A stretch of 64,000 nucleotides of DNA from IMG/VR virus record IMGVR_UViG_3300042542_004852; one strand, 5' to 3'. Of this stretch, positions 5,795-30,774 are shown in pieces. Both the position numbers and the translations under genes were made by a program. The stretch comes from a virus. Numbering within the stretch: the first letter of the stretch is position 1; each line of letters starts with the position of its first letter. The notes beneath the pieces are model-generated. The model ran no database searches, had not been told where the DNA came from, and was given only the letters and a program-made list of their open reading frames with translations.

Positions 5795-6013
5795 CTTCTC
5801 TCCTTTCTCGCTTATCTTATCCCCATGAACGAAGAAATCTTCACCACAATCTTTATCTCACTTACGCAACGCTTTGACCTTGCCTGCAAAGAAGTTGCCG
5901 AGTCGAAAAATGAAAAACTCAAAGACTACTGGCGGGAAGAAGCGGACAAAGCTCTTCAAGCTCGTCGATATATTGTAGAAAAGATTTGACTTCTCTCCTT
6001 TCTCGCTTATCTT
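5791..6013 (+). promoter_or_regulatory. Two identical 28-bp promoters (5791-5818 and 5986-6013)
   Basis: TTGACTTCTCTCCTTTCTCGCTTATCTT occurs twice. Each -35 box overlaps the TGA stop of the preceding ORF. Confidence 0.85.
5825..5989 (+). CDS. 54-aa hypothetical protein
   Basis: MNEEIFTTIFISLTQRFDLACKEV..., leaderless. Confidence 0.65.
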   Translation: MNEEIFTTIFISLTQRFDLACKEVAESKNEKLKDYWREEADKALQARRYIVEKI

Positions 6014-6036: not shown

Positions 6037-6321
6037 ATGAAAGACCTCATCACCAAAGAAAACCTCGTCGCCCTTCTTCGTTCTAAGAAAGAAGCAGTCA
6101 TTGAAGCCCTGAACGGCAAAAATGTCGTTTACCTGAACGAAGGAGAAAGCAAAGTCAAATCCAACGGCGTGCGAAACTTCAAGATTCTGGACATCGAACA
6201 CGTTGGAACTGGCAAAGCTGGCCGAACATTCATCACGGCCAAAGTCGAGGACTTGAACGACAACAGCGAAATCAAGTATCGGAATCTTCACATCGCGGGC
6301 CTTGAACTGGCTTGGGAATAG
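6037..6321 (+). CDS. Hypothetical early protein
   Basis: Start MKDLIT, strong C-ending codon bias. Confidence 0.75.
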   Translation: MKDLITKENLVALLRSKKEAVIEALNGKNVVYLNEGESKVKSNGVRNFKILDIEHVGTGKAGRTFITAKVEDLNDNSEIKYRNLHIAGLELAWE

Positions 6322-6327
6322 TCTTTT

Positions 6328-6391
6328 GAAGAGAGACGGCAATTGGAAAATGCCCCTAATAGGCTAGTAGGTTCAAACCCTACCCTCTTCT
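6328..6391 (+). ncRNA. tRNA-like RNA with collapsed anticodon arm
   Basis: Acceptor GAAGAG/CTCTTC, D arm GGCA-ATTGGAAAA-TGCC, mini hairpin CCT-AAT-AGG, T arm GTAGG-TTCAAAC-CCTAC. Confidence 0.65.
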
Positions 6392-6399
6392 ATCAATTT

Positions 6400-6498
6400 G
6401 AGCGCGAGGCATGGTTGCCTAAGCTGGCAGGATTGTCACCCTACAGTGTAAACTCCAAATGACAATGGAAGCAGGTTCGACTCCTGCCGCGCTCATCA
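6400..6498 (+). ncRNA. tRNA-like RNA with aberrant, expanded anticodon region
   Basis: Acceptor GAGCGCG/CGCGCTC, arm AGGCA-TGGT-TGCCT, stem ATTGTCA/TGACAAT with a 21-nt loop, T arm GCAGG-TTCGACT-CCTGC. Confidence 0.7.
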
Positions 6499-6518
6499 CT
6501 TTTTAATCAATAAAAAAT

Positions 6519-6776
6519 ATGCTACGCCTAGAATCCTCCACTACTTCTGTAAATGCCGCTTGGCATTATCTCTTAGAAAACAAATGCAGCTTTAGCTCTC
6601 CTGTGCAAATGCTTTCTTCTCGCGCCTTGCAAAAGGCAAAGCTCAAACCCCTCGCGCCGATTGAAACTAAAGTAAAAATCCTCTCTAGGGCTAACGCTAA
6701 AAAGAAAGCAAAAACTTTCTTGCTTAAAGCAGAGGAAAAAATTTCAAACCTCGTAAAAAAAATCTCTAGGCGGTGA
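6519..6776 (+). CDS. Basic (Lys-rich) hypothetical protein
   Basis: ORF followed by a hairpin at 6785-6823 and repeat copy 5. Confidence 0.55.
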   Translation: MLRLESSTTSVNAAWHYLLENKCSFSSPVQMLSSRALQKAKLKPLAPIETKVKILSRANAKKKAKTFLLKAEEKISNLVKKISRR

Positions 6777-6830
6777 TAAGACAAAGGGGGTGGAGAGGTT
6801 AGTGTTGTTCCTCTCTGCCCCCTAAGTTTT

Positions 6831-6993: not shown

Positions 6994-7021
6994 TTGACAG
7001 AAGCGCTTTTGCCTCTATAGT
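6994..7021 (+). promoter_or_regulatory. Sigma70-like promoter with 16-bp spacer
   Basis: TTGACA-N16-TATAGT with ATG 6 nt downstream. Representative of about 18 plus-strand copies in 2.1-11.4 kb. Confidence 0.85.
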
Positions 7022-20133: not shown

Positions 20134-20222
20134 TGGTAGTTGGCGCTGGTAACGATCCAGATGGGATAAAATCCAACACGGATTATGAGTCCGCCGCTAC
20201 CGCCTGGCAGCCCCCGCCAACT
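20134..20222 (-). tRNA. Non-canonical 8/4-fold (Sec/allo-tRNA-like) tRNA with CAU anticodon
   Basis: 8-bp acceptor AGTTGGCG/CGCCAACT, 6-bp D stem with 4-nt loop, loop CT-CAT-AA, long variable arm, 4-bp T stem, ACCA end. Confidence 0.8.
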
Positions 20223-22409: not shown

Positions 22410-23645
22410 TCAAGCTAATAATGAAGATATTGGTTTCCCCTTGTCAGCAATCTTGAATGGTCGCCCTTCTGGAGAGATTAAAATCTGTTCAATTGGCAAA
22501 CCAGCAGCAGCCGCGATTGTAGCATTAAAATCTTGCGGCGAAACAATGCCGTCTAACACTCTCATGCCTTTCTCATCGCTCTTGCCATAGACTTGACCAC
22601 CTTTGATTCCTGCGCCAATCAAAGCACTAGAAAATGCGCCAGGATGATGATCGCGCCCATCATTAACATTAATAATTGGAGTGCGGCCAAAGTCTGTGGT
22701 GATCACAATAAGAGTTTTCTTCAACAAGCCAGAAGCTTGCAAGTCTTCAATTAGTGCAGTGAGAGCAGTGTCCAACACCATTAATTTATCTTCTAAAGCG
22801 TCAAAATTATTAACATGAGTGTCCCAGCCACCGTCTGAAACTTCGATAAACTTGCACCCACCTTGTTCAACAAGTCTCTTGGCAAGGCAAACGCCTTGAC
22901 CGAAACGATTGTTGCCATATTTTTCTCGCTTCTCTGCGGATTCTTTGGTGAGGTCAAAAACATCAAGTTCGGAAGAGTTGAGCAAACGAACAGTTTGATC
23001 GTAGAATTCTGCGTAGCTCTTCTCTGATGGATTTGCAGCCTTCATCGCATCACGTTCAATCTTCTTTAAGATTTCAATGCGCTTGCTGAATTCATCTTTG
23101 TTTTTGATTTTTGCGTTTTCCAAACCGCGAAGAGGGTCTTGGATTGGAATGGGAGAATATTTCTTAGCCATCCAACCTGCGCCAGGATGATCTGCGGGAC
23201 CACCAATTAAAACATTTTGTGGGATGTTGATTTTTTCTTCATTGTCTTGCATTCTGCACATCCAAGCTCCCATGTTTGGGTGAATGATTGTGCCAATCTT
23301 CTTGTAGCTTGTGCGCTGAAGGTATTGAGCTTGTTCATGCGCTCCTGTGTTTACCATCATGCTGCGAATTAGTGCCATTTTATCACCGTGTTTGGCGAGT
23401 TTTGGCAAGTGTTCGCTGATAGAATAGTCTGCGTTTGTATTAATAGAATTAAATTTGCCCTTCACTTCTGCATCTTTTTTAGGATCAAAAGTATCAAGAT
23501 GGCTCATTCCGCCATTCATAAACAAATAAATAATGTGTTCTGCTTTGTTGGCAGATTGCGCAGCATGGATTTCTGGTAGCACAGAAACGCCTAAACCTGC
23601 ACTGGCTAGACGAAGAACGAAGTCACGACGATGGATAGAGTTCAT
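22410..23645 (-). CDS. DUF1501 protein with Tat signal (PVC-type, alkaline phosphatase/sulfatase-like fold)
   Basis: RRDF Tat motif, IYLFMNGGMSHLDTFDPK, GWDTH, TDFGRTP, GRDHHP, GIKGGQVYGKSD. Confidence 0.92.
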   Translation of the reverse strand: MNSIHRRDFVLRLASAGLGVSVLPEIHAAQSANKAEHIIYLFMNGGMSHLDTFDPKKDAEVKGKFNSINTNADYSISEHLPKLAKHGDKMALIRSMMVNTGAHEQAQYLQRTSYKKIGTIIHPNMGAWMCRMQDNEEKINIPQNVLIGGPADHPGAGWMAKKYSPIPIQDPLRGLENAKIKNKDEFSKRIEILKKIERDAMKAANPSEKSYAEFYDQTVRLLNSSELDVFDLTKESAEKREKYGNNRFGQGVCLAKRLVEQGGCKFIEVSDGGWDTHVNNFDALEDKLMVLDTALTALIEDLQASGLLKKTLIVITTDFGRTPIINVNDGRDHHPGAFSSALIGAGIKGGQVYGKSDEKGMRVLDGIVSPQDFNATIAAAAGLPIEQILISPEGRPFKIADKGKPISSLLA

Positions 23646-23649
23646 GGGA

Positions 23650-25419
23650 TTAATTAGAGAATTTAAATTCAGTTGAATTGAGAAGTGCCCAAATAACGTC
23701 GTCGTCATTTGCGCCAAGGAATGTGGCTTTTTCAGATAGCGTTGGCTTGCGGCTCAAAATGCTTTTGTAAATAACTTCCATCTTTTCAGAGGGAGACTTG
23801 CCAACCAAAGACTTTATTAAAGTTGTTTCTTTGTTTGTGGCAACGCTGGCAAGCTGCCCATTCATGAAAGAGATGACTTGAGTCACTGAACCTTCCAAGG
23901 AAGATGTTTGAATGAGTTCTCGATCACTGCGGCCAAGCTGCGCAAGAATAGTATTTGTTTGATTGGCATCATTGATTTCAGAAGCTCTTGCAACAACAAT
24001 GTTAGTGATCTTTGGCGCAAGAGAGTATTTTTCGCGCATGATTTGATTGTATTTTTCCAGCTTCATTCTCATCTTCTCTAACGAAATGTCTTCAATGGTT
24101 GTTAGCATATTTTTTGAGTATTCAGTATGAAATTCTGTTTTATATTTTTCGGGACTCTCAACGCAAAGAGCCACAACAGAATCCCAAAGCTGTTCAGCAG
24201 AAAGCCTGCGCTTCACTGGACCAATAAAAATAAACTTTTCACTATCAGAGAAGGCTCCGCTGTATGTTTGCTGCTGAAAGAGTTTCGTGTTGCATAAAAC
24301 AAATAAAAACTTTTGGCTGTCATAGTTTAAATCAACAAAAATATTGGCTAACGTGTTCATTAGTTCGCTGTCTAAAGCGTCACTGTCATGAATGTTGTCA
24401 TACTCTGAAATGATGTATTTGCCAAAAATTAAGTTCCAGTAGCGATTCACAATGTTCTTTGTGAAGGTGGGATGGTTAGGGTTGCAGAGCCAAGCCACTG
24501 CATCTTGTCGCAAATCTTCTTTGTTTTTAATCTTTCCTTTGCCATCAAGAGTGCTTGGAGCAACAACATCGTTTGGTTTCGCGTCTTTGTATTGGTAATC
24601 GTGAGGAAGTTTTAATTCTTTTGCTGCGACAATTTCAAGATCAGATTGAGTTGCGCGAACAAAGTTATTGATTTGATTGTTTAAGCCGCGATTCTTTACA
24701 GGATCGCTCTTGATGAGAGCATCAATGGTTTCTCTCAAGGTTTTGATCTTTTCGCGTGTTTCTTTTGATTCTTTTGGACGAAGCTCAACTTGATTGAACA
24801 TTGCAGCCATTTTGTAGAACTGCATTTGCGTGAAGTCTTGGAAAGGATCATCGTGGCACTGTGCGCAGCTAATGTCTGTGCCTAAAAATACTTTGTTTGT
24901 GGCAATCAAATTATCAAGAGGCATTCCTACATCTCTGTAGTAGTAACCAGTGGCGGGACTAGAGTAGTAATTGCCAGAGCTTAAGAGTAAATCTTTAACA
25001 AATAAATCGTATGGTTTGTTTGCCGCGATGCAGTCTTTGACGTAATCAATGTAGGGACCACCATTAAAATTATTGATTGGCGAAAGCTTTTCGCGCATTC
25101 TAAGACTGTCTGCCCAAAAATTAAACATGTGCGAAACGTGGCCAGGATGTTTTAATAGGTGCTTGATTAATTGTGTCTTTTTATCACTGGCAGAAGCTTC
25201 AAAATACATTTTGTGCTCTTCAAAAGTTGGATTGCGGCCAATGATTGTCAAGTATGCTCGGCGTAAAAAAACCTCTTCGCTCACTGGGGGAAGAGGTTGG
25301 ATTTTAGAGTTTAAACATTGTTTTTCGAGCACAGCGTCAATCTTTAAAGAAGAGAGGTTCAAATCAGCGCAGAAACTCCATGACACTAGACAAAACAAGA
25401 TTAAAAGTATTTTTTTCAT
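23650..25419 (-). CDS. DUF1549/DUF1553 (PSCyt2/PSD1) protein
   Basis: FLRRAYLTIIGRNPT, FLGTDISCAQCHDDPF, IVNRYWN, RRLSAEQLWDS, WALLNSTEF. Has a signal peptide. Confidence 0.92.
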   Translation of the reverse strand: MKKILLILFCLVSWSFCADLNLSSLKIDAVLEKQCLNSKIQPLPPVSEEVFLRRAYLTIIGRNPTFEEHKMYFEASASDKKTQLIKHLLKHPGHVSHMFNFWADSLRMREKLSPINNFNGGPYIDYVKDCIAANKPYDLFVKDLLLSSGNYYSSPATGYYYRDVGMPLDNLIATNKVFLGTDISCAQCHDDPFQDFTQMQFYKMAAMFNQVELRPKESKETREKIKTLRETIDALIKSDPVKNRGLNNQINNFVRATQSDLEIVAAKELKLPHDYQYKDAKPNDVVAPSTLDGKGKIKNKEDLRQDAVAWLCNPNHPTFTKNIVNRYWNLIFGKYIISEYDNIHDSDALDSELMNTLANIFVDLNYDSQKFLFVLCNTKLFQQQTYSGAFSDSEKFIFIGPVKRRLSAEQLWDSVVALCVESPEKYKTEFHTEYSKNMLTTIEDISLEKMRMKLEKYNQIMREKYSLAPKITNIVVARASEINDANQTNTILAQLGRSDRELIQTSSLEGSVTQVISFMNGQLASVATNKETTLIKSLVGKSPSEKMEVIYKSILSRKPTLSEKATFLGANDDDVIWALLNSTEFKFSN

Positions 25420-30661: not shown

Positions 30662-30774
30662 TGGTAAGTGCGACAAGATTTGAACTTGCACTATACACGG
30701 TATCCTTACGGCTGGTTTGGTATAGGGAACTTGGCTCATGAAACCAAGGCGTCTTTGCATTTCGCCACGCACTT
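30662..30774 (-). tRNA. 113-nt tRNA with Leu-type body, CAU anticodon and oversized variable arm
   Basis: Acceptor AAGTGCG/CGCACTT-ACCA, D arm GCG-AAATGCAAAGA-CGC, loop TT-CAT-GA, about 40-nt variable region (CTATAC/GTATAG), T arm GCAAG-TTCAAAT-CTTGT. Confidence 0.8.

Follow-up and report, generated by a model that had tools for sequence, protein, structure and literature searches.

Two tRNA-shaped elements without a canonical anticodon arm between two protein genes of an uncultured phage

Introduction

The 64,000-nucleotide stretch of phage DNA analysed here (IMG/VR record IMGVR_UViG_3300042542_004852; below, the window) contains, at positions 6328–6498, two adjacent sequences that resemble tRNAs and appear unable to decode. 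Are they genes for RNAs in their own right, remnants of tRNA genes, or signals within a longer transcript? The original prediction was of two tRNA look-alikes with acceptor, D and T arms, and on this main point it was right: the anticodon arm is non-canonical in both elements. The tRNA-like and other stable RNAs of phages T5 and T4 have been known for decades. Searches of the literature yielded no description of the families to which elements 1 and 2 belong.

Results

Location of the elements

The window is part of the genome of an uncultured lake phage, with a tail gene at 49–56 kb and genes for lysis enzymes, ThyX and UvdE. The nearest related record is 29 kb long and rated 21% complete, which implies a genome size of ~ 140 kb. 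Within this phage genome, a DUF1501 gene and PSCyt2/PSD1 (DUF1549/DUF1553) genes adjoin at 22410–25419 (minus strand). Such a pair is typical of Planctomycetes and Verrucomicrobia, and it is possibly a hint of the host or an auxiliary gene pair.

Elements 1 and 2 lie in a region of short genes on the same strand; all features described next are on the plus strand unless given without one. A promoter-like site, TTGACT-16-TATCTT (5986–6013), is found directly upstream of gene A and was recognized by its match to the consensus alone (9 of 12 positions); judged by this match, the transcript with both elements is likely to start here. Gene A (6037–6321; 94 amino acids, no known family) is the landmark of the site: where relatives have the elements, these always follow immediately 3′ of its stop codon. 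The 5′ leader of element 1, TCTTTT (6322–6327), gives U at − 1 and is followed by G at + 1. Element 1 itself (6328–6391) consists of a 63-nt tRNA-shaped body and the discriminator T, without CCA, as defined by its fold and by model R1. An 8-nt spacer, ATCAATTT (6392–6399), separates it from element 2 (6400–6495), a 95-nt tRNA-shaped body with the discriminator A, also without CCA, as defined by ARAGORN, Rfam, fold and model R2. The leader CAATTT in this spacer also precedes element 2-type genes of unrelated contigs. The 3′ trailer of element 2, TCAC-TTTTT-AATCAAT... (6496–6518), is T-rich, of the same kind as the sequences behind the window's true tRNAs, and runs into the start of gene B (6519–6776; 85 amino acids, no known family), the downstream gene of the gene A–element 1–element 2 unit. 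Neither gene A nor gene B had a Pfam or PHROG match. A strong, GC-rich hairpin of 13 bp (6786–6822) comes after gene B and is likely to be the end of the gene A–gene B transcription unit; it is followed by a palindromic CCTAGG...GGCCTGG stretch, and the next promoter-like site, a strong one, lies beyond it (6994–7021, no strand noted). The elements are situated between two protein genes and outside any tRNA gene cluster, the nearest true tRNA being 5.4 kb off on the other strand.

Structure of the elements

The acceptor stem of element 1, GAAGAG/CTCTTC, has 6 bp (6328–6333/6385–6390) and an A.C at the seventh position. Its D arm, GGCA-ATTGGAAAA-TGCC (6338–6354), has a 4-bp stem and a 9-nt loop with GG, and its T arm is canonical (GTAGG-TTCAAAC-CCTAC, 6367–6383). 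A mini-hairpin with a 3-bp stem and a 3-nt loop, CCT-AAT-AGG (6355–6363), stands in the place of the anticodon arm, and the discriminator T is followed by ATC, not CCA. The letters and the fold thus bear out the description with which we started (acceptor, D-like and T arms, CCT-AAT-AGG and no CCA). The minimum-free-energy fold of element 1 is a small cloverleaf, whose energy is no better than that of shuffled sequences (z-score − 1.24). Position 3:70 is A-U.

Element 2 is closed by an acceptor stem of 7 bp, GAGCGCG/CGCGCTC (6400–6406/6488–6494), to which an eighth pair, U-A, could be added. The D arm, GGCA-TGGT-TGCC (6408–6419), has a 4-nt loop and is one base from the acceptor, and the T arm (GCAGG-TTCGACT-CCTGC, 6471–6487) is canonical. 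Between these arms lies a middle of 51 nt (6420–6470) that no relative shares; the discriminator A is followed by TCA, not CCA, and position 3:70 is G-C. The z-score of the fold is − 3.34. The favoured fold has the layout of a class II tRNA, with a short variable-arm hairpin and an imperfect anticodon-like arm that contains a mismatch, bulges and an 8-nt loop. For element 2, the original description was accurate in its acceptor, D and T arms and the missing CCA, but not in its picture of the middle as a 7-bp stem with a 21-nt loop: the 7-bp complementarity in question (ATTGTCA/TGACAAT) is present but disfavoured (− 30.8 versus − 38.4 kcal/mol for the favoured fold; pair probability 0.03).

In the comparison with ARAGORN and Rfam proposed at the outset, element 2 was called 'tRNA-???' with an 8-nt loop by ARAGORN, and allowing introns, lowering the threshold or using the mitochondrial mode added nothing. 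With the Rfam tRNA model RF00005 it scored 23.5 bits, below the gathering threshold of 29, and this sub-threshold tRNA match was the only one among 4227 families at gathering and permissive thresholds. Element 1 had no match among the same 4227 families at either threshold, nor with the tRNA model at E up to 10. Compared with a canonical tRNA, the acceptor closure is present (7 bp in element 2; 6 bp and A.C in element 1), whereas the canonical anticodon arm, with its 5-bp stem, 7-nt loop, U33 and purine at 37, is absent from both elements. An antisense role was considered and rejected: neither element 1 nor the middle of element 2 has a complement in the window beyond 10 to 13 nt, which is chance level.

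Relatives of the elements

The case for more-than-chance structure rests on homologues, that is, on compensatory changes in both families, not on the single sequences. Relatives of element 1 (family 1) are present in ~ 20 related lake-phage contigs, after the same small gene, gene A; an exact-pattern scan of IMG/VR for the family 1 frame found none outside this phage group. The frame occurs in several versions: the 63-nt form of the window, a form with a mini-arm 9 nt longer (L029), one with a 32-nt middle (L240) and a 101-nt form with a 50-nt middle (L018–L020 and L030–L032). No relative has a canonical anticodon arm. In model R1, built on nine distinct sequences from the same site, 98.8% of the pairs were kept, and six pairs were changed on both sides, as compared to 0 to 1 in controls in which the partner was slid by 1 to 3 columns. 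One D-stem pair is broken in the copy of L010. Element 1 is 94 to 98% identical in L037 and L118, whose gene A is only 73 to 76% identical at the DNA level.

Relatives of element 2 (family 2) were found in ~ 65 viral contigs and comprise 64 distinct members. A scan of IMG/VR with the T arm and 3′ acceptor strand gave 59 contigs; a second scan, with the 5′ acceptor strand together with the D arm as its pattern, gave 26 contigs, and 20 of these were in common with the 3′ scan. Since the sample was drawn by exact patterns of these arms, their constancy is partly built in; the exact 3′ arms are also present in 20 of the 26 genes obtained with the 5′ pattern. Across the 64 members (model R2), 99.3% of the pairs were kept, and compensatory changes were seen in 12 of 15 pairs. 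The acceptor and T arms are almost constant, while the class II-like D arm covaries freely. These paired mutations in relatives indicate that the tRNA shape is under selection. The covariation check suggested with the original prediction has thereby been run (six pairs compensated in family 1, 12 of 15 in family 2), and its argument that the intact stems reflect selection instead of random decay is upheld by the compensatory changes in both families and by the fact that element 1 outconserves gene A.

The middles of family 2 are 20 to 184 nt long and mutually unrelated. L070 and L102 have a common middle of ~ 190 nt, in which six predicted pairs were changed on both sides with pairing kept; from these compensatory differences we conclude that middles are folded RNAs too. 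No Rfam family matched the middles of 13 family 2 loci. A canonical anticodon arm is present in a single one of the 64 members, the window's own gene at 30665–30774, and ARAGORN reported nothing in 43 of the 60 stretches cut around family 2 matches. The homologues are therefore not ordinary tRNAs, and the outcome that would have spoken against the original prediction did not occur: 63 of 64 relatives of element 2, and all relatives of element 1, are without a canonical anticodon arm.

The score with R2 was dropped as a test of family membership because ordinary bacterial tRNA-Lys genes with the same arms reach 45 to 57 bits; the score reflects the arms, and membership rests on architecture. 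The 3′ pattern of family 2 finds frame RNAs in viral contigs and, in bacterial genomes, ordinary tRNAs of 72 to 74 nt, mostly Lys(UUU), fragments and chance matches. A host tRNA as the source was rejected, as these ordinary tRNAs and fragments point to no host. Six bacterial genomes (L120, L146, L174, L187, L189 and L198) hold 3′ fragments of tRNA-Lys(UUU) that run from the anticodon loop to CCA and have no 5′ half; each looks like a scar left by an integrated element at its attachment site. A typical member of family 2 matched the cultured phages of INPHARED in 22-nt T-arm stretches alone.

Clustering of the neighbours (1252 ORFs, 59 viral matches) gave no family present in more than 6 loci. 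The orientation of family 2 genes relative to the flanking ORFs is biased only ~ 2:1, and many members stand alone or belong to clusters of RNA genes rather than lying between two genes of the same direction. In L104:5008–5880, L055:2642–2892, L089 and L058, two or three family 2-type genes with differing arms are adjacent or share one locus; arrays or tandem copies of frame RNAs are common. From L241:10012 onward, a sequence that is the same as that of L245, a family 2 5′ half (acceptor strand and D arm) is followed by > 300 nt with no 3′ half in reach. This stretch holds a promoter-like TTGACA and a terminator-like hairpin; either the insert is very large or the copy has been disrupted.

The gene A site in relatives

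Gene A is represented by 51 protein clusters in public data, and of the loci that encode it we compared 45 from metagenomes and several from IMG/VR. The spacer that follows this gene is a hot spot, at which sister genomes have 0, 1 or 2 elements. It contains no element in, for example, L003, L016, L012 and L040–L045; element 1 alone in G001, L006, L011, L014, L037, L118 and others; and an element 2-type gene alone in L015, L017, L024 and L027. The gene A of L011 is 100% identical to that of the window and element 2 is absent there, so the gain or loss of element 2 is very recent. Given L011 and the sister genomes with 0, 1 or 2 copies, the elements are dispensable. L240, a distant relative (69% nucleotide identity in gene A), has the same order of a family 1 and then a family 2 gene; the middles differ from those of the window, and the T stem is compensated. 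In the whole records of four related contigs, no further copy of family 2 was found, save in the record of L240, and the 4-kb neighbourhood had no match among the cultured phages of INPHARED.

Other structured inserts occur in the gene A spacer, namely in L033–L035, L046–L051 and L024:2783–2842. They are GC-rich hairpins or a folded stretch of ~ 100 nt, and none is tRNA-like. RNA cassettes of several kinds are accommodated at this site.

Flanking sequences and the true tRNAs

U at − 1 with G at + 1 and a 12-layer acceptor/T stack are among the known determinants of cleavage by bacterial RNase P. Of 49 family 2 members, 44 have U at − 1, and nearly all have A or T at − 2 and − 3; at positions 5 to 7 past the discriminator, T is present in 33 to 38 of the 49, on a background of 25% T. 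The true tRNAs of the window have trailers similar to those of the elements. The suggestion, made at the outset, that the elements act as processing signals fits these flanks (U at − 1 in 44 of 49, G at + 1, tRNA-like trailers) and the predicted two-gene transcript. CCA is encoded by all five true tRNAs of the window and by neither element. In family 2 it is exact in 13 of 49 members and one change away in another 17, a pattern that we read, from these sequences, as probable relaxed selection on an ancestral CCA.

The gene at 30665–30774 (minus strand) is a class II-like tRNA of 110 nt with the anticodon CAU, a variable arm of ~ 40 nt, an encoded CCA and an intact anticodon arm. It was missed by ARAGORN and scored 46.4 bits with R2 and 39.5 bits with the Rfam tRNA model; its D and T arms are of the type seen in the family of element 2. 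Class II tRNAs are normally those for Leu, Ser, Tyr or Sec, and the anticodon CAU is therefore unusual; it could reflect recoding, or an Ile2- or Met-like use. At 20134–20222 (minus strand), ARAGORN alone reported an 89-nt 'tRNA-Met' (CAT) without an Rfam match. This sequence has good acceptor, D and anticodon arms and encodes CCA, and no T arm is recognizable.

Comparison with known RNAs

By analogy of architecture, the closest known things to the elements are RNA1 and RNA2 of phage T5, which are annotated as 'tRNA-like stable RNA with unknown functions' (GenBank AY543070, 30501–30644 and 32959–33083). In both, an acceptor-like stem closes the 5′ and 3′ ends, and a D arm (class II and Leu-like in RNA1) and a canonical T arm are present. 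Both elements follow this plan of acceptor, D and T arms with a non-decoding middle for the anticodon arm. The T5 RNAs are phage-encoded and resemble element 2 in having an enlarged folded middle in this place, and T5 RNA1 scores 24 bits with the Rfam tRNA model, element 2 23.5 bits. They differ in that they lie in a tRNA gene cluster, whereas the elements lie between two protein genes, and in that the middle of element 1 is shrunken (a 9-nt mini-hairpin) while those of T5 are enlarged. Moreover, the T5 RNAs are stable RNAs seen in infected cells, whereas the elements are predicted from sequence. With R2, T5 RNA1 scored 25.9 bits (E 0.004); ordinary tRNAs score as high or higher, and a score in this range makes no convincing case for homology.

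The species 1 and 2 RNAs of phage T4 (rnaC and rnaD; AF158101) are small stable RNAs to which no function is assigned and which lie beside tRNA genes. Like the elements, rnaC has a canonical T arm at its end and is closed by a terminal stem; unlike them, its acceptor pairing is weak and it has no clear D arm. The predicted fold of rnaD is without a tRNA-like arm. The T4 RNAs have no sequence relation to the elements (15 bits with R2).

YrlA-type Y RNAs of bacteria and phages (Chen et al. 2014, PMC4201824; Rfam RF02553) do not decode; they have D and T arms like those of a tRNA and a stem that resembles the acceptor. At least one of them is cut by RNase P and given CCA (PMC4201824). Their topology is opposite to that of the elements: YrlA ends in the Ro60-binding stem, on the anticodon side, whereas the ends of the elements are at the acceptor stem. 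YrlA also adjoins a Ro60 gene. The YrlA model had no match in the window at E up to 5, and no Ro60/TROVE domain was found among the 36 window proteins scanned. In an unrelated viral contig (L074:1048–2034), a cluster of RNA genes strings together a weak YrlA-like match that scored 32 bits, a tRNA, a full tmRNA that scored 118.7 bits and a frame RNA of family 2.

The mascRNA of MALAT1 and the tRNA-like RNAs of murine gammaherpesvirus 68 have a reduced anticodon arm, are excised by RNase P and RNase Z, receive CCA and remain uncharged; a cut of the mascRNA type also makes the end of the neighbouring RNA. These RNAs are eukaryotic and unrelated in sequence to the elements, and they may serve as the closest working analogy for element 1. 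In 2007, Ponchon and Dardel reportedly designed man-made tRNA scaffolds in which a cargo RNA takes the place of the anticodon arm, so that cells process and stabilise the cargo. The layout of family 2 is exactly that of such a scaffold, although the scaffold is an engineering device and not a natural family. Identity as a tmRNA, whose hallmarks are G3.U70 in the tRNA-like domain, a reading frame for the tag and pseudoknots, was rejected, as neither ARAGORN nor Rfam found a tmRNA and 3:70 is not G3.U70. tRNA-Other of Bacillus cereus is described as a non-translating tRNA-like RNA that has an effect on the cell (PMC3399842); it has a chromosomal gene and retains its anticodon arm, unlike the elements. 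tRNA-Sec and allo-tRNA have 8/5, 8/4 or 9/3 frames, with an acceptor/T branch of 13 or 12 bp and a working anticodon arm (PMC5389517). They were rejected for element 2, which does not match the tRNA-Sec model and has no working anticodon arm.

Discussion

Elements 1 and 2 probably encode small RNAs of the T5 RNA1/RNA2 kind that have the shape of a tRNA, do not decode, are excised from the gene A–gene B transcript and are stable. What we observed is the shape, its compensatory conservation, the missing anticodon arm, flanks of the tRNA type, and gain and loss in the manner of a cassette. What we infer is transcription, cleavage by RNase P, stability and a binding partner, as follows. A single transcript, begun at the promoter-like site (5986–6013), would comprise gene A, both elements and gene B. 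RNase P would cut the 5′ end of each (U at − 1, G at + 1, 12-layer acceptor/T stack), and the usual tRNA-end enzymes would cut or trim the 3′ ends. Excision would also sever the gene A message from that of gene B, and the released RNAs would persist as stable, L-shaped molecules. Selection holds on to the upper half of the tRNA, namely the acceptor–T minihelix and the D arm, and leaves the anticodon domain free. Element 1, in which this domain is almost deleted, would be an 'empty frame', and element 2, with its unique 51-nt middle in this place, would carry a 'cargo'. As to role, our best guess is that the frame would provide precise excision, stability and engagement of a tRNA-binding protein of host or phage, and that the cargo, where present, would add a function specific to the member.

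The D arm and middle are free to vary while the acceptor/T minihelix is nearly invariant, a contrast that hints at either a sequence-specific partner or frequent recombination; the near-constant arms of family 2 could come from such recombination rather than from a binding partner. More tentatively, the tRNA frame may be a natural vehicle for expression and stabilisation, with excision by RNase P, a long life and interchangeable cargo middles traded as cassettes, element 2 being a cargo carrier and element 1 an empty or minimal frame that acts by the frame itself. If the frame is such a vehicle, the cargo middles might, equally tentatively, be protein-binding or decoy modules, for example against host defences. 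The decoy role against defences or synthetases that was part of the original prediction is no more than a possibility. The poorly kept CCA (13 of 49) counts somewhat against roles that need an encoded CCA end.

How do other readings fare against these data? The elements could be cis-acting punctuation only, the RNase P and RNase Z signals serving to separate the messages of gene A and gene B and to set their lifetimes, with the freed RNAs as by-products. Their place in a two-gene unit directly past a stop codon, U at − 1 and G at + 1, the loss of CCA and the existence of an 'empty' frame that, like element 1, offers nothing beyond the frame are all as expected for such signals. RNase P, however, needs shape and not sequence, whereas family 2 has near-invariant acceptor and T arms in contigs without a common neighbour gene; the middles themselves are kept folded, many members are single or in RNA-gene clusters instead of between co-directional genes, and a tandem pair of signals would be redundant for one message. 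We regard punctuation only as unlikely. That the elements are functionless phage tRNA pseudogenes in decay, element 1 perhaps Arg-like and element 2 class II-like, seems still less plausible to us. Such pseudogenes would not keep four helices by compensatory changes or outconserve a neighbouring coding gene, and the architecture recurs in dozens of unrelated viral contigs, with the same tandem in the distant relative L240. What decay would explain is the varying presence in close relatives, the missing CCA of both elements and the likeness to intact tRNAs of the window: the T arm of element 1 is like that of its tRNA-Arg(TCT), and its class II-like tRNA(CAU) has D and T arms of the family 2 type.

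We think it very improbable that the acceptor/T-arm sequence acts as DNA, whether as a site of recombination or attachment or by providing homology arms for the exchange of cassettes. The two strands of the T arm do form an inverted repeat with a spacer of 7 bp, many bacterial tRNA-Lys genes have the identical 3′ part, with fragments that are likely attachment scars, and middles have been swapped at a fixed site between constant flanks. But an attachment site needs the 3′ part only, whereas the 5′ acceptor strand and the covarying D arm, which are relevant to RNA alone, are kept as well. Neighbour clustering gave no recurring gene, integrase or other, Pfam identified no integrase among the window genes scanned (mostly the ORFs up to 45.4 kb), and U at − 1 and the trailer, being strand-specific, are signs of RNA processing. 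Finally, element 2 could be a working tRNA with an 8-nt anticodon loop and the four-base anticodon UGUC, a natural frameshift or quadruplet decoder. ARAGORN gives an 8-nt loop with 'tgtc' and a long variable arm, and the anticodon-like arm is kept in the favoured fold; this arm, however, is interrupted by a mismatch and bulges, the loop of the D arm is 4 nt long and one base joins this arm to the acceptor, the CCA that every true tRNA of this phage encodes is missing, the score with the Rfam tRNA model is sub-threshold, and 63 of 64 relatives have no anticodon arm at all. We give this reading hardly any credence.

The locus shows that tRNA-like stable RNAs of phages are not oddities of two laboratory phages: uncultured phages have whole families, with a constant tRNA frame and swappable middles, whose frames are under selection. 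In Rfam, such RNAs appear only as sub-threshold 'tRNA'. A minimal 'empty frame' of 63 nt that clearly covaries limits the tasks that fall to the frame as such. The position in a two-gene operon makes the predicted RNase P cut and its effects on the messages directly testable, and sister genomes in which the site is the same apart from holding 0, 1 or 2 elements are natural deletion controls. Should the cargo idea hold, these RNAs would form a new class of effector RNAs in phages, and the engineered tRNA scaffold would have a precedent in nature.
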